A stretch of DNA of 16,029 nt from a virus (IMGVR_UViG_3300007775_000008:1-16029); one strand, 5' to 3'; counted from the first letter of the stretch, positions 1,476 through 16,029 are shown. Notes: a model not told the origin generated them from the letters alone. Made by a program: numbers and translations.

Positions 1476-2531
1476 TCAAGAGTCATCCAGGCCAAGAAAT
1501 ACACCGTCATTCTCCGCATCGCCATGATCGATATATCGAGCTGCGCTTGAAGGGGATGCCCACCCACCAAACGCCATCAATCCAGCCAGGGACACACGCG
1601 GATCATGCCCCGCCTGGGTTGCTCCATAATGACGGCAATCGTGCGGCGATAGTTTTTCAATCCCAATTCCCTGCCCCAGGTGCCTTACACGGTCCTGAAT
1701 ACTACGTGTGGCCATCCCCTTGCCTGGTGTTAGCTGTCCTGTTTTATGGGATGCAAGAATCAGCGGACCGCTTTCAGCGCGGTTATCCTTTTGGACATAT
1801 TCGCAAAGTCTCTGCCAAGCACGACCGCGCAAATTATGCGTTGACCACTTGCCTACTTTCGGGCGATAAAAAATCATTTGTCGGTCTTGAAAGTTTATAT
1901 CTTCAATTTTCAGGATCGCAAGTTCTGAAACACGCATACCATGATCCAAAAGCAATATCATCATGAGCGCATCACGGCGGGCTTGTGGCATGTCATTCTT
2001 GACCTTGCATAATGCCTGAGCTTGTTCCTCGGTGATCGTTGTAGCCTTTGCTTTCTTTGTCCCCTTGCGAATCTCCAACCCTTGCTTCGTGCGCTTTGCA
2101 TCTGCATCGATGCCCTCTTTGACTGTGTAGCCCTTTAGGCTTTGCAAGCGGATGATTTCACCATCGGGGATTATTCCTGCTGAGTTGGCCAAGGTCATAT
2201 AAACCTTGACAATTGAAACGCGATCATTGATCGTCTTTATGCTGTAGCCTTCCCTGAGCTGCCATTTCTGAAATGCAGCACAAAGCCCCCAGGTAATCCC
2301 ATGCCAGGCATTTGGATCTTCGTACAGGTCGCCTGTTGGCATGATTCCGCATGTTTGCAAGAATTTAGAGAATACTTTCAGCCCCGCACGTTGGCCGCGC
2401 TGCGTGTTGATCGGTCTGCGGTCCTGGTAGATCGCAAAAACCGCGCTCTCCGCGGCTCTGTTTGCCTCGAAGCCTAGAGTTTGCATGTTCTCCGATTCGG
2501 AGATGGTAATAGGTTGCAAAAGAGTGTTCAT
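1476..2531 (-). CDS. int: Tyrosine recombinase / phage integrase family
   Basis: 351-aa ORF. It has the catalytic-type motifs GMRVSEL (Arg), HDCRHY (H-x-x-R) and GGWASPSSAARYI (Trp/His plus the Tyr nucleophile), and an N-terminal SAM-like core-binding region. The start could alternatively be the internal ATG at 2486. Confidence 0.9.
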   Translation of the reverse strand: MNTLLQPITISESENMQTLGFEANRAAESAVFAIYQDRRPINTQRGQRAGLKVFSKFLQTCGIMPTGDLYEDPNAWHGITWGLCAAFQKWQLREGYSIKTINDRVSIVKVYMTLANSAGIIPDGEIIRLQSLKGYTVKEGIDADAKRTKQGLEIRKGTKKAKATTITEEQAQALCKVKNDMPQARRDALMMILLLDHGMRVSELAILKIEDINFQDRQMIFYRPKVGKWSTHNLRGRAWQRLCEYVQKDNRAESGPLILASHKTGQLTPGKGMATRSIQDRVRHLGQGIGIEKLSPHDCRHYGATQAGHDPRVSLAGLMAFGGWASPSSAARYIDHGDAENDGVFLGLDDS

Positions 2532-2557
2532 TTTTGGATTTTCTCGCTTTCATAATC

Positions 2558-2601
2558 GGTCTAAAATCAACAGGGGCAGGATTTATACCATCCCGCCCCT
2601 G
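2558..2601 (-). terminator. Possible weak intrinsic terminator upstream of int
   Basis: Hairpin 2571-2581/2591-2601 (CAGGGGCAGGA / TCCCGCCCCTG, one mismatch, 9-nt loop) is followed on the minus strand by TTGATTTTAG. Confidence 0.35.
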
Positions 2602-2643
2602 TACGTGTCTCTAAGGGCTGTTTTTTGTTACGGTATTGCCGTC

Positions 2644-2826
2644 TTATGCTTCAATGTTCTTTCGCTCACGATATGCAGCTTGTTTGTGGGCATTGTTGCA
2701 ATAGCGTTGTGAATAATATTCAGTTTTGAAGTTTTGCCCACAATAGCCACAGATCCACGTGTAAATCTTCTTTGGCTTTACCTGGAGGGGCTTCGGAGTA
2801 TCTTCGCTTTTGCCTGTCCCATCCAT
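2644..2826 (-). CDS. Small zinc-ribbon-like protein (CxxC...CxxxH)
   Basis: The C-terminus reads KKIYTWICGYCGQNFKTEYYSQRYCNNAHKQAAYRERK. The start is uncertain: ATG 2826, ATG 2907 or TTG 2916, none with a good SD. It overlaps the next ORF. Confidence 0.45.
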   Translation of the reverse strand: MDGTGKSEDTPKPLQVKPKKIYTWICGYCGQNFKTEYYSQRYCNNAHKQAAYRERKNIEA

Positions 2827-2948
2827 CGCGTGAGACGGTCCACTCCTGTTTCCCACTCGTGAGGACAATCGCTCGGCAATATCCACGGCCTGCCCTCCGC
2901 TTTGCATCGAAGGCAAAACACTATGCGACGGGTCCCGTCCTCCTGCAT
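2778..2948 (-). CDS. Small zinc-finger-like protein
   Basis: MQEDGTRRIVFCLRCKAEGRPWILPSDCPHEWETG... The ATG at 2948 lies 5 nt after the upstream stop (TAG 2954-2956). The track's longer form (to 3017) would overlap the upstream gene by 64 nt. Confidence 0.45.
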   Translation of the reverse strand: MQEDGTRRIVFCLRCKAEGRPWILPSDCPHEWETGVDRLTRWMGQAKAKILRSPSR

Positions 2949-2953
2949 TATCC

Positions 2954-3754
2954 CTAGGCCATATACTCTGGACGGTCTTGAAAAGGGCGCGGCGTTTCGC
3001 CTAACTCCTTCCCGCACTTCTCACACTTTGCCGCATGTTGGGGGTTTGAATTGCCACACCCTAAACATGTCCAGCCTCCAATAGGGTGATAGGTTGGTTC
3101 TTTGCTTTGTTCTTGGTCATAGGGATTTTTTAAAATAGGCATGGCTGTTTGCTGGTATGTTCTATCCTTTGGCAAGAATGGCATATTAGGATCGGCCTCT
3201 TCAAGCCCCAAATCCCGCTTTACCTGCGACACAATATCTCGGTGAATAGTCACGGCTAGACTTGCCTTTTCCTGGTCAAGTTCGTTTGTCGCCTGCTTTA
3301 TGGCGGTAGTGACGATCTCGCCGCGTGCAATGCCTACGTTTATCTTTTCGTGAATGTCGGGGGCGGTCGCTTCATGGGCGTAGAGCAGGGCGGCATGTAA
3401 AGCCGTCACGATGATGAAGCCATAAGTCATCCATTGCCCGATGTCGCCCGCTTCGATCTGTCCGCTGGATAAGATAACTTCGGCGGCCACCATGCCAAGA
3501 GTGCCAATGAATGCCACAATAAAACCAATGGCTGAGCTTGCATATTGACCTGTACTCTCGGACGTGAACACAAATGCCAAAGCCCAACACATCGCCGCAA
3601 TGTCAAACATGACAAGTCCCCACATGCGATTTATGAGACTATCCGGGAAGATGCGGGCAAGTGCGGAGTAGGTGAGGGACATTAGCAGCGCCAGGACTGC
3701 GATCCCGAACACTGCGAAGATATATTTACTTGCTGTTTGCAAAACTTTTTTCAT
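2954..3754 (-). CDS. Integral membrane protein (about 4 TM helices) with a C-terminal zinc ribbon
   Basis: The ATG at 3754 overlaps the upstream TGA (ATGA) and is preceded by AAGGA 7 nt upstream. The track start at 3772 is a TTG. The N-terminal half has hydrophobic helices and the C-terminus reads GGWTCLGCGNSNPQHAAKCEKCGKELG. Confidence 0.7.
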   Translation of the reverse strand: MKKVLQTASKYIFAVFGIAVLALLMSLTYSALARIFPDSLINRMWGLVMFDIAAMCWALAFVFTSESTGQYASSAIGFIVAFIGTLGMVAAEVILSSGQIEAGDIGQWMTYGFIIVTALHAALLYAHEATAPDIHEKINVGIARGEIVTTAIKQATNELDQEKASLAVTIHRDIVSQVKRDLGLEEADPNMPFLPKDRTYQQTAMPILKNPYDQEQSKEPTYHPIGGWTCLGCGNSNPQHAAKCEKCGKELGETPRPFQDRPEYMA

Positions 3755-4128
3755 GGGGTTATCCTTTCGCAATAGTGCGAATTTATCCAGCCTGTGAAAT
3801 TTTCAAACTGGACTTTTACCCAAGCGCCTGAAGACGGATCGGGTAAGAGAATCAATTGATCTCCCGGCTTTAGCCAGGTGATTACAATCCCTGCCATGCC
3901 TGGAGCGTCTCGCATGTACAAAGACTCCGCAGCGGTCACAACGCAAGTGCTCGGCGCTGGGGTGGTGCTTGCGGTCCCTGTGGGTGCAATCGAATTGATA
4001 GGGGAGGGGAGAGCTTGCTCAGTGGGAGAAACATCAACTGCATTTCGATCGATCGAATCCAGGAGCGATCCGCTGCAAGCCAAAGAAGACAGGGCGAGAA
4101 AGACCGCGATTAGTAATATCCTATTCAT
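3751..4128 (-). CDS. Lipoprotein with a bacterial SH3 (SH3b) domain
   Basis: MNRILLIAVFLALSSLAC is a signal peptide with a lipobox Cys. The C-terminus, LYMRDAPGMAGIVITWLKPGDQLILLPDPSSGAWVKVQFENFTGWINSHY, is SH3b-like. The ATG at 4128 lies 4 nt after the upstream TGA, so the longer track start is unlikely. Confidence 0.7.
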   Translation of the reverse strand: MNRILLIAVFLALSSLACSGSLLDSIDRNAVDVSPTEQALPSPINSIAPTGTASTTPAPSTCVVTAAESLYMRDAPGMAGIVITWLKPGDQLILLPDPSSGAWVKVQFENFTGWINSHYCERITP

Positions 4129-4132
4129 AATG

Positions 4133-4489
4133 TCACCCTGTAATTTCACGCGGGTAGCTTGTTCCACCAGGCGAATGGAACACTCCGCCAATCGCAGCTA
4201 TTTTATGGCTTGCCGATGAAACTGCCTCCAACATAAATTGATTCGCGATCGCTTTGACTTTTCCATCTTTTTCAGTTTCACTATCCCAAGTTGTTAAGAT
4301 GGCTATATCTTGCAGTAAGTCCAACGCATCCTTTTTGGCCCCAATCTTTTCGAGATAAGCTGCTAATGCCTCGAAAGCCGTATCCTTAATCGCGCTCAAA
4401 AATTCTTGAGAAAACACTGGCTCTTCAAATGCTGGACCTGCAATGTCAATTTCCCTAGCTTTCCGATCAACATCATTTTTCTTTTTCAT
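4133..4489 (-). CDS. Hypothetical protein (118 aa)
   Basis: It has a strong RBS (AGGAGTAAATC-ATG) and is the first gene after a regulatory intergenic region. I recognise no motif. Confidence 0.65.
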   Translation of the reverse strand: MKKKNDVDRKAREIDIAGPAFEEPVFSQEFLSAIKDTAFEALAAYLEKIGAKKDALDLLQDIAILTTWDSETEKDGKVKAIANQFMLEAVSSASHKIAAIGGVFHSPGGTSYPREITG

Positions 4490-4521
4490 GATTTACTCCT
4501 ACCTGTTACCAGGCTGATTTA

Positions 4522-4530
4522 TGCTAAAAT
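4522..4530 (+). promoter_or_regulatory. Extended -10 promoter element on the plus strand (TGCTAAAAT)
   Basis: TGn-TAAAAT lies at 4522-4530. The -35 is poor (CCTGTT at a 17-bp spacing). Confidence 0.35.
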
Positions 4531-4536
4531 TCTTAT

Positions 4537-4598
4537 GGATGTTTTGACCTGCCCACTCAGGTCAGACACTAGGCTGCCTCGCTAGGGGCAGCTTTTTT
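4537..4598 (+). ncRNA. Candidate ~60-nt plus-strand small RNA, antisense to the leader of the 4489 operon
   Basis: Hairpin 1 is TGACCTG-cccact-CAGGTCA (4545-4564). Hairpin 2 is GCTGCCTC-gcta-GGGGCAGC (4573-4592) followed by TTTTTTGTTTT. There is no plus-strand CDS here. Confidence 0.4.
4573..4598 (+). terminator. Plus-strand intrinsic terminator
   Basis: An 8-bp GC-rich stem (one G-T pair) with a 4-nt loop is followed by T6. On the minus strand it has no U-tract. Confidence 0.6.
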
Positions 4599-4699
4599 GT
4601 TTTCTTTTTCTTGCCCCTGTCCGTATCATCAATACCCAGGCTAAGAACCAGAGCGCACGATGAACGGTTATTCAGTTGTTAATGTGCGGGGTCTTTTCT

Positions 4700-4769
4700 T
4701 TGGTAATGAGTAAAAAGTAAAAATAATACGCCTTGCGGCGGCTCTTACTCTTTACATTGGTAAAGAGTA
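4700..4769. promoter_or_regulatory. Operator-like repeats TTGGTAA(T/A)GAGTA, one embedded in a 10-bp perfect palindrome
   Basis: TTGGTAATGAGTA lies at 4700-4712 and TTGGTAAAGAGTA at 4757-4769. TACTCTTTAC-attg-GTAAAGAGTA spans 4746-4769. The repeats sit between the terminator and the next operon. Confidence 0.45.
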
Positions 4770-4771
4770 TA

Positions 4772-4809
4772 CCAAAATAAAAAAACCCCGTCAAGCTAAA
4801 ACGGGGTTT
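4772..4809 (-). terminator. Minus-strand intrinsic terminator after the excisionase-like gene
   Basis: Stem 4783-4791/4801-4809 (AAACCCCGT/ACGGGGTTT) has a 9-nt loop. On the minus strand it is followed by TTTTTTTATTTTGG. Confidence 0.8.
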
Positions 4810-4828
4810 ACTTCTCGTCTTTTTGCAT

Positions 4829-5083
4829 CTATTGATCTGCCTTTCGGCGGGGATCGTTCTTTTCCATGTCTTTAGTTCGTTTGAGATATTCAGCCACCGA
4901 TTTTTTAGACACAAGCCATGCACGGCCAAACTTTACTCCATCAAGTGTTTTGTTTCGCAGCATCATTGGGATTGTCTTGACGTGAAAGCCTAGCTTTTTG
5001 GCGGCATCTTTTGTTGAGATGAATTCGCTTAAATCTGGCATATTATTGCTTCTTGCTTGTTTTGTAGGTGAAATATTTATCAT
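4829..5083 (-). CDS. Excisionase-family / MerR-like HTH DNA-binding protein (candidate Xis or RDF)
   Basis: ISTKDAAKKLGFHVKTIPMMLRNKTLDGVKFGRAWLVSKKSVAEYL matches the excisionase-type HTH pattern. The ATG at 5083 is preceded by GGAGA-TAAAC, and the recombinase TAA stop lies within that RBS region. Confidence 0.65.
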   Translation of the reverse strand: MINISPTKQARSNNMPDLSEFISTKDAAKKLGFHVKTIPMMLRNKTLDGVKFGRAWLVSKKSVAEYLKRTKDMEKNDPRRKADQ

Positions 5084-5085
5084 GT

Positions 5086-6708
5086 TTATCTCCATTCGAC
5101 CATGATAGATTTTTCACCACGTATTATCTGTGTGCCCCCACGGGGAGAGGCTACGTTACGTGAGTTATCAGATCCATTCTGAAACAGATCTATCATGGGG
5201 TATGTAAAAAATATTCTTGCTTTATTGTATCCGAGATCGACTCTTGAAACAAATTGCATAAGCCAGGCTTTTACATCTCTCACGTTTCCAGACTCTTGCA
5301 GATCTTCGAATTGATCGCGCCAGGCGATTATCATCAATCGGATTGCTTCCGGAGTGATCACTGTTTGAGCCGCTGTGAGCTGAAGACGTAAACGATCGAT
5401 CTCCGCTCTTGCTTGCATCTTTTCTGCCTCCCGTTCTTTTAGCCTATCCTGGGCAGAGGGAGAGTCTGTCTTTTCGATGGTCCTAAGCAGTCTCTGAATC
5501 GCAATGTCGAGATCATCCAGCTTTCGGTTTTCGGCGGTGATCTGCCTTTCAATTTCTGTTGTTGAATCAAGTTGTTTTTTCGTTTCGTCGATAACCTCCA
5601 TAAGATATTCAGGTGTAAGAACATGATCAAGCACGGCTTTTATAATTTGTGTCTCTGCATTGATCGCCCCAACTCTTCTTGACTTACAAGCAGCGGAACC
5701 ATGGCGATCCTTCTTTCCGCAAATATAATGTTTCCATACTTTATTTTTATTGCCGTTGCTATGGGTCATCATGTTCCCGCATTCAATGCAGTAAGTGAAA
5801 CCCGATAGAGCTGTAGGATTTCCCACTCGCCGCGGATGATTTAGGTTTCCTTTTTTTCCATAGCGCGGATGTGCCTTTCTAAGTTTTTGCACGGCTTCCC
5901 AGAGCTCCCAGGTGATAAGCGGCTCATGATGGTCCGTGATTTCAAGATCTCCGCTCTTGCCAATGCCCAAATAGGATTTATTCTTAAAAAAAGTTGTCCA
6001 TGTGTTGACACTTGTATACAACATCCCTTTTGTAGCTTTGGTGATTTCCCGATAAGATTTTCCCTCAGCTCTCAATTGCCAGGCTATTTTTACATACCCA
6101 CTCAAAACTGGATCAGGCTCCCATCTGCTAACCATGCGCGGTATACCATCGCGCTTTTCACCAATGTTCACTTTGACGGCGACATATCCGCGGGGAGGTA
6201 TGCCAGGCGAAAAACCCTTGCTCACAAGTGACTTTAAACCACGCTTCACATCACGGGAAGTTTGACGGCGCTTTTCTTCATTGGCCAGGCTGATAACTGT
6301 TTCTACAATACGCGCTGAAAAATCATCCACAGGGATCACGTCTGTCACGGAGTGGACCATTACCCCACGCTGCTGCAATGTTGCTTTGTAAAATACGGTG
6401 TCATTATAGTCACGCGAGAAGCGGGCAAAGTTCCAAATCAAGATAGCCTGGGGGCGGATTGTTTCGTCTTCGCTTTGTTCAATCATTCCCATAAATTCAT
6501 CACGTCCAGTTGTACTTCCTCCTGATCGGGCAACATCTCGAAAAACTTTGACCAGGGAAAGGTTATACCGTTTGCAATATGCAATGATTTCGCTTTCCTG
6601 TTGTCCTATGCTCTGCTCCTGAGCTGGTCCGCCGCTGTCACGCAAGTATGCCCACACGCGAGCACCTGCAGTCAAGCTCGGCGGGGGAGGGGAGTATTGA
6701 TCGCTCAT
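5086..6708 (-). CDS. Large serine recombinase (resolvase catalytic domain, recombinase domain, zinc ribbon and coiled coil)
   Basis: 540 aa. The N-terminus WAYLRDSGGPAQEQSIGQQESEI carries a YxRxS-type nucleophile motif. CIECGNMMTHSNGNKNKVWKHYICGKKDRHGSAAC is a zinc ribbon, followed by the coiled coil RKLDDLDIAIQRLLRTIE...EIDRLRLQL. RBS is AAGGATAAATT-ATG. Confidence 0.9.
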   Translation of the reverse strand: MSDQYSPPPPSLTAGARVWAYLRDSGGPAQEQSIGQQESEIIAYCKRYNLSLVKVFRDVARSGGSTTGRDEFMGMIEQSEDETIRPQAILIWNFARFSRDYNDTVFYKATLQQRGVMVHSVTDVIPVDDFSARIVETVISLANEEKRRQTSRDVKRGLKSLVSKGFSPGIPPRGYVAVKVNIGEKRDGIPRMVSRWEPDPVLSGYVKIAWQLRAEGKSYREITKATKGMLYTSVNTWTTFFKNKSYLGIGKSGDLEITDHHEPLITWELWEAVQKLRKAHPRYGKKGNLNHPRRVGNPTALSGFTYCIECGNMMTHSNGNKNKVWKHYICGKKDRHGSAACKSRRVGAINAETQIIKAVLDHVLTPEYLMEVIDETKKQLDSTTEIERQITAENRKLDDLDIAIQRLLRTIEKTDSPSAQDRLKEREAEKMQARAEIDRLRLQLTAAQTVITPEAIRLMIIAWRDQFEDLQESGNVRDVKAWLMQFVSRVDLGYNKARIFFTYPMIDLFQNGSDNSRNVASPRGGTQIIRGEKSIMVEWR

Positions 6709-6944
6709 AATTTATCCTTGCTGTTGTTAGGAATTATTTTTCCGTTTTCGTTTTTCAAAATTCCACGCTCTAAAAGATCATTAATGACAGTCTCAAAATT
6801 TATTACAAGCAGAGACAATGCCGCATCTTGCGCCGTTTTCAGATCGGCATATTGATTGCCGCTGATTTCTTCGATAATCATATCAGGCGCTTTCCGGGGC
6901 ATTGTCTCTGCTTTTATCCTTAGATCTTGTGTTACTTTTTTCAA
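6705..6944 (-). CDS. Hypothetical small protein, translationally coupled to the serine recombinase (ATGA overlap)
   Basis: 79-aa ORF. The start at 6944 is a TTG with a distant GGAG, and an alternative ATG lies at 6902. Confidence 0.5.
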   Translation of the reverse strand: MKKVTQDLRIKAETMPRKAPDMIIEEISGNQYADLKTAQDAALSLLVINFETVINDLLERGILKNENGKIIPNNSKDKL

Positions 6945-6968: not shown

Positions 6969-7025
6969 CTGCTACATGTTACGTGTTTCGCGATTAAAAC
7001 GCGAAACATGTAAACATGTATGCAG
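6969..7025. promoter_or_regulatory. ~57-bp imperfect dyad, candidate attP for the serine recombinase or an operator/terminator
   Basis: The core stem is 12 bp (6981-6992/7000-7011, loop ATTAAAA). The arms extend imperfectly (CTGCTACATGTT vs the reverse complement of AAACATGTATGCAG). There are three ACATGT palindromes. An outer clamp AAAACCCG(6943-6950)...CGGGTTTT(7033-7040) encloses the region. Confidence 0.4.
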
Positions 7026-7050: not shown

Positions 7051-9411
7051 CTAGCCTTGTGACGGGAACAGGCGCATTGTTGAGGGACCGCGCTTGCCTT
7101 TGATCTCTTTTTCAACCAAGATCCCATCCTTTAGTAATTGGTCAAGGATCATTTCTAATTGGTTTCGCTTTACTCCTGTTTGCATGTGAAGATCAATAGC
7201 TATCTCCCTGCGAGAATTTCTCCGAGATGTCTTCAACCGCGCAAGTATCCTTATGGCGAGTTCGTCCTCTTCACTTTCGAGAGGTGTACTCGCATCTTCG
7301 ATCATTCTATGAAGACTTGCTCGGTACCCTTCAGTAATCTCTTGGGCTCTAAACCAGTGGGCATCTTTCACCACAAGCGGATTACCTTTTGCCATCCTTG
7401 CCCAGTCTGATGTTGCCAAAAGAATAGCAATTTTGATTGCCTTTTCATGGAAACGGCCATAAGACGATTCAAGCTTTTCAGGTATCCTCTTTTTCTCAAC
7501 GAGTGAATACATGGCTTTATGATATTTATCCCACCGGCGTTTCACTCCTGGTGCCAGAGTAGCCTCAATAGCGGGTGGAGCTGGTGTTGAACCAAGAGCG
7601 TTTTCCTTTGGTGTTTCCAGCTTTTCAAACATCAGATGATTTATATGCTTTACTAGGGCTGGAGGAATAGGGAATGGATCCGGAAAGAACACACGCACCG
7701 GTGCAGTGTCAGGTGTAACAAGTAAGAAACGGGCAAATAGACCACCACTCCAATATTCAGGAGTTTTCAAATGCTGTCTCAATGCTGCAGGAGTGGTAGG
7801 TCCGCAAATCGTCAAGTAAATATTTCGGACCGTCTCACGACCGCGCGCAATGGTGGAAATTTTTATCTTCGATTCGCATTCATAAAATCTCAAGATGATG
7901 TTTTTGAGTTCTGCCAAATGTTTTTGTTGGAACCATGACAACATGCTAGCAGCTTCATCCATCCACCAGGCCCGCTGCGCTGCAAAAAGACGTTCATTCT
8001 GCCACTCTTCCTTTTCTTCTTGGTTCCAATTTTGGTAATTGTCTTGCGGCCTATTTGACAACTCAGTAATCAAACTTTGCGGTGTTACACCATCGGGCAA
8101 AAGCAGGTGAGATAATCCGGCCATCTTCATAACTTCCAATGCGGTTTTGTAGCCTGTTGTCTTTGTGTATAGTGTGGAAGGTGCTGAGAGCAGGATATAA
8201 AGATTGGGGTAGATGCTTTTCGATGCACCCATGTTCACAAATACGCGCCGTGCAATGGCCGTAGACAAAATAGCTAGTGCGTAGGTTTGATGAAATAGAT
8301 GTGGTGTCATTGGGGCATCTTTGATCGCAAAGGAGATGTAATCATCGATGAATTTACCTGCCTTTTTCCCTAGCTTTATCTCAGCGTCGCTCATCTGAGC
8401 AAAGCTAGGAAGTTCTGGCATGGCAGATGAGATTGCATCGTCTGGATGCTCATTCTCATCGTCAACATCACTTGAGATGATTGGCGCGGCCTTTCCTTGT
8501 TTCTTGACCATCTTCTCGAATGCGTGAGGGTTGGAAGGTGTCCGCGTTTGCGAATAGGCACTCTTGATTGTTTCAATTGCCTCCCCTTCCTTTTTCCCTA
8601 AGTTGGACCATACCGGCAAAAGAAAAGACTCTGCTTCACTTTGGGAATATCCGCAACCGTTCAAATCACAAGCGGCAATGAATAGCCTGTTATTTCGCGT
8701 ATGTGGTCCCGCGCCAAATTCAAGAAAGTCCTTGGTTTGGCTTGACACTCTTCCACGCTCATTACTGGAAAGATTTGCAGGAGTTGGATCTGTCGATTTT
8801 TTGTCATTCTTGAAGTCATCCCACAATTGACAAATGCGGATGATCTTTTCACCATCGTATTCGAGCGCGGACCTATCAGCATTGTGCAATTCATAAAGAG
8901 CGCCTCCCGGGTGCGTTGAAGGCGGCACAACGCCTTGATTGCCATTCCCCAGGAATTCCAAATGGACATCATGCCATTTTTTATTTTTGGGGATCGATCC
9001 TTTGATCTGTAATACAAGCTTGCCACGATCGGGCGCATCTGCTCTTTTTATAATTGGAGCATTGGCCAATCCGGGGAAGTATTCAAAGAATTCCTGCAGG
9101 TGATCGTCAATGTCAAGCAAACATAGTCCGCTTGATTTCTTTCCACACAATAGGCCAACATTCCCACCTTTTTTTACGTGAGGCAGAATATCCTTGAATG
9201 CGATCGGCTTGACCTGCCAAGCCTTGTCAATCGGTTGTTTCCCAGGGGAGTTTACCTTTGCGTTCCATGCAGCCACTCGGACAAAGTTGGCACCCTGTTG
9301 TGCAAACCATTCAAGGGATGTATAATCGTTTTGGATGTTCTGACGCTTCGCTAGCGTCCCTTGTGCCCTGGCTTCTGCTGGGGCACTTTGTTTTTCATTC
9401 TTCGTTGTCAT
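7051..9411 (-). CDS. Bifunctional primase-polymerase (Prim-Pol N-terminus, PriCT-like middle) fused to a DUF3987-like helicase/ATPase domain
   Basis: 786 aa. GKQPIDKAW...GGNVGLLCGKKSSGLCLLDIDDH and LEFLGNGNQGVVPPSTHPGGALY are Prim-Pol signatures. HTRNNRLFIAACDLNGCGYSQSEAESFL is PriCT-like. The C-terminal ~400 aa resemble DUF3987. RBS is GAAAGGAAAACGAAG-ATG. Confidence 0.85.
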   Translation of the reverse strand: MTTKNEKQSAPAEARAQGTLAKRQNIQNDYTSLEWFAQQGANFVRVAAWNAKVNSPGKQPIDKAWQVKPIAFKDILPHVKKGGNVGLLCGKKSSGLCLLDIDDHLQEFFEYFPGLANAPIIKRADAPDRGKLVLQIKGSIPKNKKWHDVHLEFLGNGNQGVVPPSTHPGGALYELHNADRSALEYDGEKIIRICQLWDDFKNDKKSTDPTPANLSSNERGRVSSQTKDFLEFGAGPHTRNNRLFIAACDLNGCGYSQSEAESFLLPVWSNLGKKEGEAIETIKSAYSQTRTPSNPHAFEKMVKKQGKAAPIISSDVDDENEHPDDAISSAMPELPSFAQMSDAEIKLGKKAGKFIDDYISFAIKDAPMTPHLFHQTYALAILSTAIARRVFVNMGASKSIYPNLYILLSAPSTLYTKTTGYKTALEVMKMAGLSHLLLPDGVTPQSLITELSNRPQDNYQNWNQEEKEEWQNERLFAAQRAWWMDEAASMLSWFQQKHLAELKNIILRFYECESKIKISTIARGRETVRNIYLTICGPTTPAALRQHLKTPEYWSGGLFARFLLVTPDTAPVRVFFPDPFPIPPALVKHINHLMFEKLETPKENALGSTPAPPAIEATLAPGVKRRWDKYHKAMYSLVEKKRIPEKLESSYGRFHEKAIKIAILLATSDWARMAKGNPLVVKDAHWFRAQEITEGYRASLHRMIEDASTPLESEEDELAIRILARLKTSRRNSRREIAIDLHMQTGVKRNQLEMILDQLLKDGILVEKEIKGKRGPSTMRLFPSQG

Positions 9412-9772: not shown

Positions 9773-9988
9773 TTAGGAATAATTAGGGCATGTTTCATTC
9801 CGGCATACCTGTTTGCCTTCCGTAGTCAGGTGCAGCTCACAATGGCACTCTGAGCAGACCTGGATAACAACAATGTCCAGGATCTTGCCTGTCAAGATCT
9901 GCATTGCCTGGTCCCAGGCAGCACGCTTTTCAGGTGGTAACGGCACGTGCCTGATTTCAATATCAGCATCCAATTCTCTTTTTGGCAT
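9773..9988 (-). CDS. Small zinc-ribbon protein (71 aa)
   Basis: The ATG at 9988 is preceded by AGGAAAGGAATTGTT. The C-terminus reads CSECHCELHLTTEGKQVCRNETCPNYS (CxxC...CxxxxC). Confidence 0.6.
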   Translation of the reverse strand: MPKRELDADIEIRHVPLPPEKRAAWDQAMQILTGKILDIVVIQVCSECHCELHLTTEGKQVCRNETCPNYS

Positions 9989-10112
9989 AACAATTCCTTT
10001 CCTAAATATTTTGTGATAATGTGGCGGCGCGACCACCACTGTATAAGATCATCGTTGATTCCAGTAGTAAAAAAGAGCGTTGGGAGAGCGATCAATCAAT
10101 ACTGGATTTTTC

Positions 10113-10160
10113 CTGTACATTTTCTGTACATTTTCTGTAAAAATATTTTTATATCGATAT
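10113..10160. repeat. Iteron-like 11-bp tandem repeat plus AT-rich palindromes (candidate replication origin or promoter/operator)
   Basis: CTGTACATTTT occurs twice (10113-10134) with a degenerate third copy CTGTAAAAAT. It is followed by the palindromes AAAATATTTT (10140-10149) and ATATCGATAT (10151-10160). Confidence 0.45.
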
Positions 10161-10243
10161 CAGATCTCGACCCGTTTTTCTGGAAAAGTTGTGAAGCGCC
10201 GAGACGCTGCGCCCTCGGGCGCCTGGCCAGATCGAGCGCGAAT

Positions 10244-10277
10244 CCCCGAAGACCCCACCCCCCCTATCCCCTTCCCC
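10244..10277 (-). other. G-quadruplex motif on the minus (coding-sense) strand / i-motif on the plus strand
   Basis: Plus-strand C-tracts lie at 10244-10247, 10253-10256, 10258-10264, 10268-10271 and 10274-10277. On the minus strand this reads GGGGAAGGGGATAGGGGGGGTGGGGTCTTCGGGG. Confidence 0.6.
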
Positions 10278-10335
10278 ACACGCGAGATCTATACCGTGCC
10301 CGGACCTGTCCGCACGCACGCACTCCCGCACGGAA

Positions 10336-10392
10336 TTATTGGCGGTTAAATTCGTTTTCAAAACATCTTCAAAACATCTTGACCGCCAATAA
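10336..10392. repeat. 11-bp perfect stem enclosing a tandem 11-mer repeat
   Basis: TTATTGGCGGT (10336-10346) pairs with ACCGCCAATAA (10382-10392). The 35-nt loop carries TTCAAAACATC twice (10357-10378). Confidence 0.6.
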
Positions 10393-10464
10393 CTCAACAG
10401 TCCCAAACGTGTATAGGCTTCCCTATCAGATGCTATTTTCTGCAGTGATCGGGCTGCTTCTGTT

Positions 10465-10506
10465 GTCCGCGGTGTACTGTTAAAACTGTCACAGTACACC
10501 GCGGAC
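10465..10506. repeat. 16-bp perfect inverted repeat (hairpin or cruciform)
   Basis: GTCCGCGGTGTACTGT (10465-10480), loop taaaactgtc, then ACAGTACACCGCGGAC (10491-10506). There is no flanking U-tract on either strand. Confidence 0.7.
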
Positions 10507-10519
10507 TAGCAAGCCCCAC

Positions 10520-10587
10520 GCCCCAGGCAAATCACACAGGAAGGGCGGAGAAGGAGAAAGACCTCCCCTACCGTGTTTTCCTGGGGC
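10520..10587. repeat. Long-range 8-bp clamp around a purine-rich segment
   Basis: GCCCCAGG (10520-10527) pairs with CCTGGGGC (10580-10587). The interior reads GGAAGGGCGGAGAAGGAGAAAGACCTCCCC. Confidence 0.4.
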
Positions 10588-10660
10588 AGCATGGCCAAGG
10601 CACATAACGCCCAATAAAAGAGCATTTTGGGCTTCATGTTTCTACTGAATAAGAATTAAG

Positions 10661-11548
10661 TTATAAAGGTTCCATGGCGCGCGCCGCCGCCCCGCTATCA
10701 CGCTCCCGCTCTCGTTCTCGCTCCGCATCTTCCCATGCTTCAGCCCGCCTGACAGCGGACCTATAAGCCAAGGTCAAAGCCTTGTACCTGGGCGCGTATT
10801 TCGATCTCAGGCATTTTTCACAGATGACAAAATCTGAATCGATGTAAATAGATTCTTCTATGTATGCACCTTGCAGATCTTCAACGTCTGAAACAACTTC
10901 AAGATATTCGGCCTCTTCAGCCGCATAAGCAAATGTTCCAGCAGCGGACCAGTTGAAAGAAGTTCCACAAATTGCACATTCAGTAATTTCAAAATCCACA
11001 ATCTTTTCAAAACGCTGGGGGAAGTGGTTGATCTTGTTTGATATCTCACCGCTGCTTTTTGAGAGGTAATCCAGTATCCAATCACCCGCAATTTCAAAAG
11101 CGTGTTTTTGCAGATCGTCCATTAGATCGGTTTTGTAGCTGATCGCGTAAGATTGATTGCCCGTTTTTGGATCGGTGTAGATATGGCCAATCGTCTTCCA
11201 TTCATCAGTTGGATTAATTCTGAGTTTGGTTCTCTTTTCGTTGTTTGGTATTACCTGCCTTTTTGGATCGGCTTTCCGTTTCTGTAAAAACTTGAGTACC
11301 ATTCCAAATGTCCATGAATAGCGGCGCTTTAGCCAGGTGATTACATCGCCGGTTTCCTGCTCCATGCCTGGACGATTGATCTCATACGTTTGACGGCGGA
11401 TGTCCACAGTCAAGCCGTATGTATTTGTGCTGCGCCATATTTCGGAGTTTTTCGCGTCCACTTCAAACGCTTCGCCCGCTTCCTGCATGAGAAGCTCGAT
11501 ACGATGTTTTTCCTTCAATGCACGGAGTTCGTCTTTAGTCATCTTCAT
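10661..11548 (-). CDS. Hypothetical protein (295 aa) with two CxxC pairs and an acidic/ERERER tail, coupled to the upstream ATPase
   Basis: The ATG at 11548 is preceded by AGGTGA-CAGCG and overlaps the upstream gene by 14 nt. Motifs are CAICGTSFNW...ICEKCLRSK and a C-terminal AEAWEDAERERERERD. Confidence 0.65.
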   Translation of the reverse strand: MKMTKDELRALKEKHRIELLMQEAGEAFEVDAKNSEIWRSTNTYGLTVDIRRQTYEINRPGMEQETGDVITWLKRRYSWTFGMVLKFLQKRKADPKRQVIPNNEKRTKLRINPTDEWKTIGHIYTDPKTGNQSYAISYKTDLMDDLQKHAFEIAGDWILDYLSKSSGEISNKINHFPQRFEKIVDFEITECAICGTSFNWSAAGTFAYAAEEAEYLEVVSDVEDLQGAYIEESIYIDSDFVICEKCLRSKYAPRYKALTLAYRSAVRRAEAWEDAERERERERDSGAAARAMEPL

Positions 11549-12851
11549 CGCTGTCACCTGCCAATTCATATATCTTTGCACCCTTCGCAGCGCTCACGAA
11601 GATGATCTCTCGTGTTCCATGAAGAATTTCAATCCCTTCCCTAATATTTGCATCACTCAGGCTTTTATCAATGCGCTTTGCTTCTGCCCTCAATTGCGTG
11701 TGATTCAATTTATCGTTCTGTTTGAGGGCTTCAATGATCGCATCATGTGCCCGGGCAGTTTTGCTTCGATAGGCAATCCGCCAAAAACGCGCCTCTGTCA
11801 GATCCAAGTTTTCATCTTGGGTGTATGAAAAGTTTGCACTGATGTTGGGAGCATCAGGACCACGGACGGCCACTGGCTTGATCGTGACCTGGTCTTTATC
11901 AGCCATATCTCGTTCAACAAGGAACGCTCCGTCAACCCCAGCAAGGATGCTTCCCGATCCCCTTAGATTATCTTCAGGTGCCCCACCCGCTTTACCAATG
12001 CCCTTTTTGGCATGATGTACCAGGATGATCGCAACATTACACGCTTCTGATATCTGACGAATGGCTCCCATGATTTGAGAAGCTAGCGGACTGTTTTCAT
12101 CCACGGGGCCAAACACCTGCCCAAGATGATCTATAACAAGCACCCCAATATCTCCAAGCCCTTTTATGCGTTCGATCATTGCAGCCACATTTTCAGGCCT
12201 TGAAAAATCCGGCCATGGAGAGGGCATGCTGTAGGCTTGAAACTGGCCGTGGTCAATATCAATCTCCAGCGCCCTGGCGAATGCTTTCATGCGTCTTTTC
12301 AAAACTTGGGTACCATTTTCCAGATCGATCCAAACAACACGCTCAGACGCTACTTCAATGCCATCGCTTCCCTTGGGGGTGGTCATCCAATATAAGCCGC
12401 TCACAATGTGATGACACATATCCATAATGACCAATGTCTTTTTATGCTTCGGTTTTCCAAAGAAAACCACCACTGAAGGACGTGGAAGGAAATATCTCAC
12501 GACCCATGAAATAGGCGGGATCTCCTCCACCATCACATCTGCCAGGTCGAAGGCTTCCCAACCCTTTGACGTTTCCAGTGTTGCCAGGTCCGCATTAGGA
12601 TTTGCGAGATCGATCATGGGGGAAAGTATCAGATCCAAGCCACGTGCCGTCAGCTCTGCCTGTAATCTGCTCTTACGCTTTGACTTGTCCCTCCCCTCCG
12701 ATAGGACACTCATCACCACATCAAGCAATGGACCCTGTAAGCGGGATAAATCCGCCGCTGTTGGATCGTTTGCAGTGGAATCAGTCAATCTCCGTAGTAA
12801 ATGCGCCGCGTAGTTAAGTACGTGCTGGGGTTGTTGCGTTGTGTCTGCCAT
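11535..12851 (-). CDS. RecA-fold ATPase, RepA/AAA_25-like (replicative helicase-like)
   Basis: 438 aa. The Walker A-like motif is FFGKPKHKKT (12435-12458). VLVIDHLGQ is Walker B-like, followed by AIILVHHAKKG...LRGSGSILAGVDGAFLVER, typical of the AAA_25/RepA pattern. No clear SD precedes the ATG at 12851. Confidence 0.75.
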   Translation of the reverse strand: MADTTQQPQHVLNYAAHLLRRLTDSTANDPTAADLSRLQGPLLDVVMSVLSEGRDKSKRKSRLQAELTARGLDLILSPMIDLANPNADLATLETSKGWEAFDLADVMVEEIPPISWVVRYFLPRPSVVVFFGKPKHKKTLVIMDMCHHIVSGLYWMTTPKGSDGIEVASERVVWIDLENGTQVLKRRMKAFARALEIDIDHGQFQAYSMPSPWPDFSRPENVAAMIERIKGLGDIGVLVIDHLGQVFGPVDENSPLASQIMGAIRQISEACNVAIILVHHAKKGIGKAGGAPEDNLRGSGSILAGVDGAFLVERDMADKDQVTIKPVAVRGPDAPNISANFSYTQDENLDLTEARFWRIAYRSKTARAHDAIIEALKQNDKLNHTQLRAEAKRIDKSLSDANIREGIEILHGTREIIFVSAAKGAKIYELAGDSDEDD

Positions 12852-12889: not shown

Positions 12890-13462
12890 TCACCTTTTGT
12901 TGAGTTTTCTTCGTAAGTCAGTCGGTGTGATTTCTTTTTTCGTTGTGATCTCGTTTGGAAAAAAATCCATCAACGCTGGAAGATCCGTAGCAATCTTTGA
13001 AATAAGATTGGCGCGTTTGGTTTGTACGTAAGTAAGGGTGTGATGATCGCCGCTTTTCAAGTCGGCTCGATACGCGCTGTATTTCTCTTTGAGCTCATCT
13101 GTCTTATTGGCAGCATCCAAAAACAGGGCGTAAATCTCATCCTGAATTTGCAGAGCATCTTTATTGATCTCCGCCATTCTGGAAAGGCGAATAGTATTTA
13201 ACTCTTTCGCACGTTCCTGTTCATCTTTCTGAATCTCAAAGTCCAGGTCTTTGATTCCCGTTTCGGTCCCTTCAATGCGAACTCGAAGATTTACAATCTC
13301 ATCAGTCAACTTGGAAGTTGACCGCCCATCACGTATTGCCTGGGATTGATCGGAGAGTTTCACTTTGAGAGATGCTCTCTGCTCATCAAGCAGTTTCACG
13401 AGCTCGGAGCGCTGCTCCTTGGTTGTAGCTAGTTTTTTTTCAAGTTTTTCAAGTGTGTTCAT
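12890..13462 (-). CDS. Coiled-coil hypothetical protein (190 aa)
   Basis: RBS is AAGAGGAAAC-ATG. The sequence is heptad-rich and charged (EKLEKKLATTKEQRSELVKLLDEQRASLKVKL...). Confidence 0.65.
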   Translation of the reverse strand: MNTLEKLEKKLATTKEQRSELVKLLDEQRASLKVKLSDQSQAIRDGRSTSKLTDEIVNLRVRIEGTETGIKDLDFEIQKDEQERAKELNTIRLSRMAEINKDALQIQDEIYALFLDAANKTDELKEKYSAYRADLKSGDHHTLTYVQTKRANLISKIATDLPALMDFFPNEITTKKEITPTDLRRKLNKR

Positions 13463-15449: not shown

Positions 15450-16029
15450 CTACACGCCTCCTAAATTGAAAATCAACTCGTTGGCCAGCATATCAACCCG
15501 CTGATCGATCTCTCCACGAATTTGACGTAGTGTAAGACCGCTATTGAAATACTGGTTGATCGTCTGCTGCTGTGAATTGGACTGGTTCGTGATCGGTTGT
15601 ACCAGCGAACGCGCCATATCTTCAGGAGAGACGCGCTGCAAACCCATCTGAAAGCCCTGTGCGGTGAACATGCCCAGCTTCATAGCTTCTACCGACGGCG
15701 AACCAATCCCCAAAGATTTCTTGATCGCGCTTAGTACCGTCTCACCTACTTTTGTAGCAACCGTCAATAGTCCGGGGATGCCAAGCAACATGCCGTTCGC
15801 CAATCCCTGCAGGATGTATTTACCAACCAGCCCCCAATCGATGCGAGAGAATGTATCGCGGATATAGGTCACAAGTTTGCCGAGCGCATCACGCATGAAT
15901 GTCATGAACTTATTCCAGGCGTCCTTGATGCCGAAAATCTTCTCGAATACTTTGTTGAAACGTTCCACGAAGGCATCCCAGGCTTCCTGCAGGTATTCCG
16001 TGGCCGCATCCGTATCACCTTTCAGGAAA
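15450..16029 (-). CDS. Phage tail tape measure protein, C-terminal part (same gene as 1..1310 across the junction; about 588 aa in total)
   Basis: Track ORF 15450..15968 is in frame with the ORF from 1310 (1310 minus 62 equals 1248, a multiple of 3). The track's initial 'M' is an internal GTG valine. The sequence contains the LGIGSPSVEAMKLGMFTAQGF motif common in tape measure C-terminal regions. Stop is TAG at 15450-15452. Confidence 0.8.
   Translation of the reverse strand, partial: FLKGDTDAATEYLQEAWDAFVERFNKVFEKIFGIKDAWNKFMTFMRDALGKLVTYIRDTFSRIDWGLVGKYILQGLANGMLLGIPGLLTVATKVGETVLSAIKKSLGIGSPSVEAMKLGMFTAQGFQMGLQRVSPEDMARSLVQPITNQSNSQQQTINQYFNSGLTLRQIRGEIDQRVDMLANELIFNLGGV
15907..16029. repeat. 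Right copy of the exact 123-bp terminal direct repeat
   Basis: Identical to 1-123. It lies inside the tape-measure reading frame. Confidence 0.95.

Follow-up and report, generated by a model that had tools for sequence, protein, structure and literature searches.

Two unrelated recombinases on a small tRNA-targeting element of Chloroflexota: a likely serine integrase and an accessory tyrosine recombinase

Introduction

A circular element of less than 16 kb that carries two unrelated site-specific recombinases raises the question of what each of them does. The element is contained in the viral sequence IMGVR_UViG_3300007775_000008:1-16029, a stretch of 16,029 nucleotides that we refer to as the window and whose positions are counted from its first letter; since the first 123 bases of this IMG/VR record are the same as its last 123, the element is a circle of 15,906 bp. 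A tyrosine recombinase of 351 amino acids (1476-2531) and a large serine recombinase (LSR) of 540 amino acids (5086-6708) are encoded 2.55 kb apart on the minus strand, which carries all credible genes of the window, and an excisionase-family helix-turn-helix (HTH) gene, HTH_17, follows the LSR (4829-5083, minus strand). An earlier reading of the sequence alone (the sequence-only reading) had listed these three genes and had offered dual integration sites, a split of roles between integration and multimer resolution or inversion, and nesting or fusion of two elements as explanations; the genes were confirmed as minus-strand open reading frames (ORFs) with Pfam matches. Here we compare the window with its integrated and circular relatives. 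The explanation that accounts best for the whole is, in our judgement, a division of work in which the LSR is the integrase and the tyrosine recombinase an accessory enzyme, and we hold it to be rather more probable than the other explanations combined.

Results

Both recombinases look catalytically active

The LSR has the large serine recombinase architecture (PF00239, E 1.3e-18, with PF07508 and PF13408) and can be aligned with 3g13 and 3guv, two solved structures of the resolvase domain. Across 38 aligned homologues, with 49-83% identity to the query, Y21, R23, S25, Q30, R69, R96 and R99 are unchanged and the zinc-ribbon cysteines C307, C310, C330 and C341 are invariant; by these residues the LSR looks active. 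The tyrosine recombinase (PF00589, Phage_integrase, E 1.2e-24) likewise looks active, with R200, K225, H297, R300, W324 and Y333 invariant in 41 homologues (40-73% identity); its first ~16 residues are not conserved in the same alignment.

The best NCBIfam matches of the tyrosine enzyme are archaeal XerA (75.6 bits against a cut-off of 220), then XerC (53 against 335), XerD (44.6 against 330) and XerS, all below cut-off, so that by sequence it is Xer-like and not a member of the XerA, XerC or XerD equivalogs; its best sequence match among solved structures is also an archaeal Xer. In an AF2 model built from the alignment of 41 sequences (mean pLDDT 86.5), a helical N-domain that starts at residue 12 is joined to a catalytic domain, and the model's best full-length matches are Cre-DNA complexes (TM 0.65-0.70 over ~350 columns) followed by XerA. 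The beta-rich N-terminal arm-binding domain of lambda-type heterobivalent integrases is absent from the model, which points to a simple two-domain recombinase of the Cre/XerA kind.

The sequence-only reading had allowed that one recombinase might prove inactive or be absent from all relatives. The catalytic residues are instead invariant, and both enzymes occur together on at least eight elements, namely the window, L043/L068, L037+L003, L015, L071, L040+L150, the degraded L025 and one G003 element. For several pairs of homologues the longest contig had the same length for both proteins, and in three of these cases the two genes were confirmed to share a contig. These relatives were recovered by profile-based searches; a whole-circle megablast against phage and plasmid collections gave no match, and a single-protein scan of viral contigs found no relative. 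L025, from an Anaerolineales genome, is a decaying element that still sits at tRNA-Glu, its LSR and tyrosine recombinase (5063-6340 and 9809-11696) being broken by frameshifts or stop codons.

The LSR and HTH_17 genes bound the integrated element

The integrated relatives have Chloroflexota as hosts, and their layout is always tRNA gene, HTH_17 ... small ORF-LSR, host. The gene that follows the tRNA, at the start of the element, is HTH_17 in 10 integrated loci; the LSR is the final gene before host DNA. One integrated copy is seen whole, on a 117-kb metagenome contig represented by two overlapping loci (L037/L003), and reads host, tRNA-Glu(CTC), HTH_17, two small ORFs, tyrosine recombinase, tape-measure-like gene, AAA_25 module, primase, small ORF, LSR, host. 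The order tRNA, HTH_17 ... LSR, host is repeated at tRNA-Glu (TTC or CTC) in L010, L011, L012, L020, L023, L025, L027 and L015/L171. In the circular forms (the window, L006/L043 and L031/L032) HTH_17 stands directly 3' of the LSR; because the two genes are adjacent in circles and at opposite ends when integrated, the attachment site lies between them. The att junctions of integrated copies, whose inspection the sequence-only reading had suggested, gave tRNA-HTH_17 and LSR-host as boundaries, with junctions of the LSR type. Its description of HTH_17 as coupled to the LSR is correct for the circle alone, because attP, the attachment site of the element, lies between the two genes; in the integrated form HTH_17 adjoins attL, the left junction.

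Five LSR-bounded relatives at tRNA-Glu lack the tyrosine recombinase (L009, L010, L011, L012 and L027; no PF00589 in six frames inside the element). For L010 (7.1 kb) and L011 (8.1 kb) an ORF-by-ORF Pfam scan also found none, and for L009 and L027 the absence relies on contig numbers matched to accession order. The att junction sequences of L010-L012 are identical to those of the other tRNA-Glu elements, and those of L027 are slightly degenerate. Since these five LSR-only elements share the layout, with junction sequences read in three of them, we infer that the LSR is the integrase.

The LSR also tracks the target. L040/L150 and L071 sit at tRNA-Val and L041 is a tRNA-Arg element. The LSRs of L040/L150 and L071 form a divergent clade (~37% identity) that bears the tRNA-Val 3' end, (T/C)(T/C)AGCGCCCAC, at the equivalent C-terminal coding position; by hand translation, L040 keeps a tail after this core, with a weaker matching pattern. 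The tyrosine recombinases of the tRNA-Val elements and of L041 are 55-69% identical to those of the tRNA-Glu elements. Between target classes the pairwise distances of the LSR jump to 0.6, those of the tyrosine enzyme being 0.3-0.45 (Mantel r 0.59, p 0.025). Thus a change of tRNA target goes with a change of LSR clade, whereas the tyrosine enzyme shows no such shift. This comparative anatomy supports the LSR, which we consider very likely to be the integrase acting at this attP, as the enzyme that would catalyse recombination between attP and the host site attB, and it makes it likely, if with somewhat less assurance, that the tyrosine enzyme is not a boundary integrase.

Three observations concern individual loci. 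The 11-kb contig L016 is titled Gammaproteobacteria bacterium Bin_33, all remaining hosts being Chloroflexota, and this label is probably a binning error, although the hosts may range more widely. The left end of L009 abuts a second element and not a tRNA: L009:1-700 opens with the C-terminal part of a different LSR, which crosses the GTGGGGGCAC core in another reading frame and is followed by the next element's HTH_17 gene, preceded by its conserved tail; these are apparently two tandem elements joined by a hybrid attP-like site. The 15.9-kb circle L043 (the same element as L006, L007, L030 and L068) holds three recombinases, the family LSR, a tyrosine recombinase and a second LSR of 570 amino acids (L043:13591-15303, 36% identical), which fills the slot of the window's SH3 and membrane genes.

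A probable attachment site within the LSR gene

Comparison of the circular junctions of the window, L006 and L031 with attL and attR (the right junction) of integrated copies places a putative attP of ~50 bp at 5115-5164 (minus strand), with the LSR coding end as its P arm. The outer inverted motifs are CTCACGTA (5164-5157) and TACGTG (5123-5118), and the centre of symmetry is G5141/T5140 within CCCC[GT]GGGG, with the inverted motifs 16 nt to either side. The block GTGGGGGCAC (5141-5132, minus strand) is the 3' end of tRNA-Glu, a 10-bp identity, and at the same time encodes part of ...P-R-G-G-T... near the C-terminus of the LSR. The only block common to tRNA, attL, attR and attP is (G/A)TGGGGGCAC, the 3' strand of the tRNA-Glu acceptor stem; at CTC-type tRNAs the centre base is A in tRNA and element alike and the identity starts exactly there. 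The last 8-9 nt of the tRNA are replaced by an identical copy from the P' arm of the element.

The P' arm is formed by the last 14 codons of the LSR (QIIRGEKSIMVEWR; 5089-5130, minus strand), followed directly by the start of HTH_17. This tail is joined to the LSR in the circle only; integrated copies hold it between the tRNA and HTH_17, and their LSR ends 1-5 host-encoded residues past GGT. The protein sequence of the tail is conserved in attL of integrated copies, where the changes are synonymous or conservative. Inverted motifs of the CTCAC(G)TA type agree between the two arms within each element and vary among elements; L006 and L031 differ from the window in both arms, CACGTA being changed to CACGGA or CGCGGA in the P arm, with CGCGGA or CGCGTA in the P' arm. 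Imperfect inverted half-sites, a central dinucleotide and a short identity with attB are the geometry of a serine integrase site, judged from sequence, and the crossover can be placed precisely only as a prediction. Integration thus appears to replace the final 14 codons of the LSR and to part it from the HTH gene; with attP placed there, a full-length, tailed LSR followed directly by HTH_17 is encoded by the excised circle only.

The partner sites in the host were sought in two ways. Synteny of the host flank, followed from L025 through 61 family genomes in order to find an empty attB, gave a single syntenic match, L157, with no tRNA-Glu nearby, and unoccupied tRNA-Glu loci were recovered by direct search. 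At both unoccupied and occupied tRNA loci we observed one or two tandem units of ~85 bp, each composed of a terminator, a short GC hairpin and a duplicate of that part of the tRNA which runs from T-loop to 3' end (TTCGAATCYCCGTGGGGGCAC). They occur at L169:1576-1760, downstream of tRNA-Glu in L170, and in the attR flanks of L003, L009, L013, L015, L016, L025, L026 and L150, and tRNA-Val loci show the same unit structure. Each unit looks like a complete attB-sized site by its sequence; scars and reserve landing pads are both possible readings.

Small partners of the LSR

The assignment of an excisionase-like HTH protein in the sequence-only reading was upheld by matches to winged-helix DNA-binding domains of the excisionase family, by PF12728 (33.2 bits, cut-off 27) and by the TIGR01764 'excisionase family' model (38.7 bits, cut-off 28.8). 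Its longest ORF starts at 5095 and overlaps the end of the LSR (PF12728 ORF 4829-5095); relatives start the gene at the position of ATG 5083, which gives 4829-5083. The HTH_17 protein is a candidate directionality factor or regulator, the directionality role being suggested by gene position only. An alternative candidate partner, as open as HTH_17 for this role, is the product of the 79-aa ORF at 6705-6944 (minus strand), the stop of which has a 4-nt overlap with the start of the LSR; tblastn found this ORF directly upstream of the LSR in most LSR-bearing loci, and its product has no informative match in Pfam or NCBIfam.

Upstream of the operon of the 79-aa ORF and the LSR lies a conserved dyad, TTACGTGTTTCGCG...CGCGAAACATGTAA (plus strand; window 6979-7013). 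It was considered as an attP and rejected, being intact in the integrated elements L005:4321-4352, L017:2765-2810 and L071:10566-10600, and it is therefore an operator or promoter element.

The tyrosine recombinase travels with a replication module

The tyrosine recombinase gene is always internal, in at least four different positions: after a 90-aa ORF in the window, L015 and L071, after two small ORFs past HTH_17 in L037, directly after HTH_17 in L040, and after the AAA_25 module in L043 and L039. This module (10661-12851, minus strand) consists of the AAA_25 helicase-like gene (11535-12851, PF13481) and a 306-aa partner gene that overlaps it (10661-11581), and it co-occurs with the tyrosine recombinase. 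The tyrosine and AAA_25 genes are found together in the window, L037, L043, L039, L015, L071, L040 and L041; all close-family members with enough context lie in LSR-bounded AAA_25 elements, with a match to the 306-aa protein in all but L041. Other LSR-bounded elements (L016, L020, L023 and one 88-kb contig) carry a different recombinase of 314-330 amino acids (SAM_1 with PF00589), and a simple internal tyrosine recombinase has therefore been recruited more than once.

Origin of the enzyme as a captured host Xer was considered and is not supported, two host-family genomes having no homologue at E < 1e-10. On large metagenome contigs, homologues of ~40% identity stand alone among housekeeping genes at L081:9965-11005, where GDSL lipase and acyltransferase genes lie to one side and genes for TerC and an HtrA-like protease to the other, and at L098:9896-11020, beside an ABC transporter and a MerR regulator, and the wider family may include chromosomal, possibly Xer-type members.

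In light of these data, the following course of events is proposed. The circle would insert in the 3' end of a host tRNA-Glu gene through an LSR crossover at the R-T dinucleotide of CCCC[G/A]TGGGGGCAC, the tRNA being restored. The LSR would then stand at the right end, its 14-codon tail exchanged for a few host codons, and the excisionase-family HTH gene at the far left end beside the tRNA; excision would reunite the full-length LSR gene with the HTH gene. The tyrosine recombinase would take no part in setting the ends of the element and would be an optional accessory travelling with the AAA_25 replication module, its most likely role being to resolve multimers of the replicating circle at a site within the element. 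Multimer resolution is the most economical role for the enzyme, and we put the specific claim that it is a multimer resolvase at close to an even chance, slightly on the lower side. The split of roles raised by the sequence-only reading is in this way favoured in its first part, with the LSR at the boundary and as the sole recombinase in five integrated relatives and the tyrosine enzyme internal; its inversion part, for which no site pair was found, is not.

Several points weigh against this division of work. No recombination site for the tyrosine enzyme was identified on the element, no conserved motif beside its gene in 9 relatives, and no 13-mer specific to tyrosine-bearing elements. A 17,140-bp circular sibling, G002 (= L032), has the same backbone and palindrome with no PF00589 in any frame, and the small LSR-only elements also carry replication genes, from which it follows that this way of life does not depend on a resolvase. 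In the tRNA-Val clade we saw no element free of the tyrosine gene, and the sufficiency of the LSR is there deduced by homology to the tRNA-Glu clade. In addition, the order tRNA-Val, HTH_17, tyrosine recombinase of L040 resembles a classical xis-int arrangement.

Candidate sites for the tyrosine recombinase

Two inverted repeats were considered as sites for the tyrosine enzyme. The first is a palindrome with 16-18-bp arms and a 4-6-nt spacer at 10465-10506, downstream of the 306-aa gene. Repeats of the TGTGAT type lie on its flanks, its position is kept in 9/9 elements with the AAA_25 module, and it is absent from the small LSR-only elements. Because it is present in G002, which has no tyrosine enzyme, it is more likely a candidate origin and less likely the tyrosine site. 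The second is a dyad with 13-bp arms and a 7-nt spacer at 2570-2602 (reverse-complement coordinates 13305-13337), ~40 bp upstream of the tyrosine start. It has the geometry of a core site, for which two inverted arms around a 6-8-bp spacer are expected, and a sequence that is not conserved in relatives, and may terminate the preceding gene, act as an operator or be a core-type site.

The sequence CCTTACCAACTGAATAA, which forms apparent direct repeats around the L040 block, was rejected as a recombination site, since it is also found downstream of HTH_17 in tyrosine-free elements; a promoter or leader role is more likely for it. The motif C(C/A)TTA(C/A)CAAC(T/C)GAATAA is present at 4668-4684 of the window, at L037:8627 and 19015 and at L040:9874 and 18215. 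It lies downstream of HTH_17, at ~100-350 bp, whether or not the element carries the tyrosine gene, and again ~50-90 bp past the palindrome in several AAA_25 elements, and is probably a promoter or leader signal common to two operons.

Alternative roles and origins of the tyrosine recombinase

The alternative that survives best is one of nesting or fusion, in which the tyrosine recombinase would be the integrase of a once-independent replicon, made up of this gene, the AAA_25 and 306-aa genes and the palindrome, that became lodged in a minimal 7-kb LSR element and has persisted with or without a current function. The 7-kb L010 has the order HTH_17-SH3-membrane protein-90-aa ORF-PrimPol-small ORF-LSR, and relative to it the window has ~9.1 kb extra exactly between the 90-aa ORF and PrimPol; L071 carries a shorter extra block in the same slot. 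The tyrosine gene lies at one end of the block or the other in the window, L015, L071, L043 and L039, and it is accompanied by the AAA_25 module in every family member having enough context. An ancient fusion would explain both this co-occurrence and the extra block at a single slot of an L010-like backbone. However, the window block is not flanked by direct repeats of >=10 bp, and a search for att-like direct or inverted repeats around the stretch from the tyrosine to the 306-aa gene returned 9-mers at chance level only; no stand-alone block was seen among the loci examined, every close homologue that shows both ends lying in an LSR-bounded element; in the G002 circle the block is present and the tyrosine gene missing; the gene is off the block edge in L037, L040 and L041; and the invariant catalytic residues argue for a current function. 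The nesting or fusion of the sequence-only reading is therefore not supported as a recent event and is possible as an old one, in which an AAA_25 replicon joined a minimal LSR element, and we regard it as unlikely to account for the presence of the enzyme.

Slightly less probable still is a second integration route, by which the tyrosine recombinase would insert the element at a second locus of the chromosome or in different hosts. In its favour are the intact and conserved state of the enzyme, the existence of ~40%-identical homologues in surroundings of phage or ICE type (ICE, integrative and conjugative element), for example in L046, and the position of the gene beside HTH_17 and the tRNA in L040. 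Against this, the five integrated elements with the tyrosine family, each seen in part, are bounded by tRNA-HTH_17, LSR-host or both; both ends are seen in four (L037/L003, L015/L171, L040/L150 and L071) and the left end only in L041, and no junction was seen beside the tyrosine gene in any of the five. The enzyme does not diverge with the target tRNA and its model has no arm-binding domain, and no other tRNA-like or host-like segment was seen in the window. The dual integration sites of the sequence-only reading thus find no support in the junctions or in the relation of the enzyme to the target tRNA, which it does not track.

We consider it very improbable that the tyrosine recombinase performs the tRNA integration in two-recombinase elements and leaves the LSR with another task: tRNA 3' ends are classical targets of tyrosine integrases (PMC4701971, PMC10484663), but L010, L011 and L012, which lack the enzyme, have identical junctions at the same tRNA position, the att core lies in the LSR gene and shifts with the LSR clade, and the site geometry is of the LSR type. 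Just as improbable is inversion or excision of an internal segment by the tyrosine enzyme so as to switch gene expression, to which a faint NCBIfam resemblance to DNA invertases of the tyrosine type (E 8.6e-09, far below cut-off) and the differing gene order around the recombinase among relatives could point, as the window has no site-size inverted or direct repeat pair, its sole strong palindrome is single-copy, and the genes of every relative are all on one strand.

Gene content of the window

The remaining genes, annotated with Pfam, are given in the direction of transcription and are all on the minus strand. A tape-measure-like ORF of ~592 amino acids (1-1322 + 15450-16029), which crosses the arbitrary contig junction, is the only virion-like gene of the window; the versions in relatives have 683-745 amino acids (PF10145), and the gene is missing from the 7-8-kb LSR-only relatives. 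Five small genes to which Pfam assigned no function lie between it and the AAA_25 gene. The mostly non-coding stretch of ~1.2 kb that lies 3' of the 306-aa gene has at most three short ORFs and contains the strong palindrome. The second replication gene, a Prim-Pol/DUF3987 primase-helicase (7051-9411), is part of the minimal LSR-element backbone and is also present in the 7-kb LSR-only L010. After the 79-aa ORF, LSR and HTH_17 genes come a 340-bp gap, a 118-aa ORF, an SH3 protein, a membrane/zinc-ribbon protein and the 90-aa ORF, and then the tyrosine recombinase. No capsid, portal or terminase genes were detected in the window, and a Pfam scan of 20 of its ORFs gave no FtsK/SpoIIIE-like gene.

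Discussion

The individual features of this family have counterparts in known systems. The element phiRv1 of Mycobacterium tuberculosis reportedly has a large serine integrase and a small HTH-type Xis as directionality factor, and the elements described here resemble it in combining a probable LSR integrase, an adjacent small excisionase-family HTH gene and a small prophage-like size; the HTH protein is here a candidate directionality factor. Unlike phiRv1, the target is a tRNA 3' end, attP lies in the coding end of the integrase between two genes, and a Cre-like tyrosine recombinase is added. The phage-plasmid P1 has the Cre/loxP resolvase and the unrelated serine invertase Cin, and does not integrate. 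As in P1, a simple Cre-type tyrosine enzyme and an unrelated serine recombinase with another task are present on one replicon, whereas the serine enzyme of P1 is a small invertase and that of the window a likely integrase, and no lox-like site was identified in our elements.

An att site within the integrase gene, with exchange of the integrase C-terminus, has been described for streptococcal ICEs that target rumA with a single serine integrase (PMC4701971), and the tyrosine integrase Int of Mx8 likewise has its att site within its own gene, as cited in the same work. In both these systems and the present one, the integrated and excised forms encode different integrase C-termini. In the rumA ICEs, however, the target is a protein-coding gene and reading frames are swapped, whereas here the partner is a tRNA gene, the 14-residue tail is kept in attL, and integration also splits off the downstream excisionase-like gene. 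The family further resembles the integrative and conjugative elements of actinomycetes (AICEs) such as pSAM2 and SLP1, which are 9-24 kb in size, integrate in tRNA 3' ends, excise, and replicate with their own Rep or Prim-Pol (PMC2440964), in being a small element at a tRNA 3' end with replication genes of its own. Unlike pSAM2 and SLP1, with their tyrosine integrase and FtsK-like transfer gene, it has a serine enzyme at its boundary and Chloroflexota hosts; the window has the tRNA target, Prim-Pol and AAA_25 and, with no FtsK-like gene among the ORFs scanned, falls outside the AICE-like class. Surveys have found that tyrosine enzymes dominate tRNA insertions and are the usual users of tRNA 3' ends (PMC4701971, PMC10484663).

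Our literature search found no published account of this Chloroflexota element family, which joins known features in a new combination and in a phylum without described elements of such a kind. Taken together, the comparative evidence indicates that the two recombinases are not redundant, and it defines an undescribed family of small integrative, replicating elements. To our knowledge, the Chloroflexota have almost no characterised mobile elements or genetic tools. The serine integrases of the family use tRNA 3' ends, a niche that is usually that of tyrosine integrases, and their clades are paired with different tRNAs (Glu, Val and a possible case of Arg). As pairs of attP and attB can be read from sequence, they are candidate tools for site-specific integration.

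Most interest lies in the tRNA-mimicking attP that the LSR carries in its own gene, a rare arrangement by which integration would edit the integrase and disconnect its likely directionality factor. We tentatively suggest, as a speculation more likely wrong than right, a built-in sensor of the integration state, in which the tail and the rewiring of the genes set the direction or stability of recombination, the Cre-like enzyme lets the circle persist as a plasmid, and the tandem attB-like units are landing pads or scars made by the family. The integrated copy encodes a tail-less LSR and has the excisionase-like gene directly downstream of the tRNA gene, and the tandem attB-like units sit downstream of host tRNA-Glu genes.

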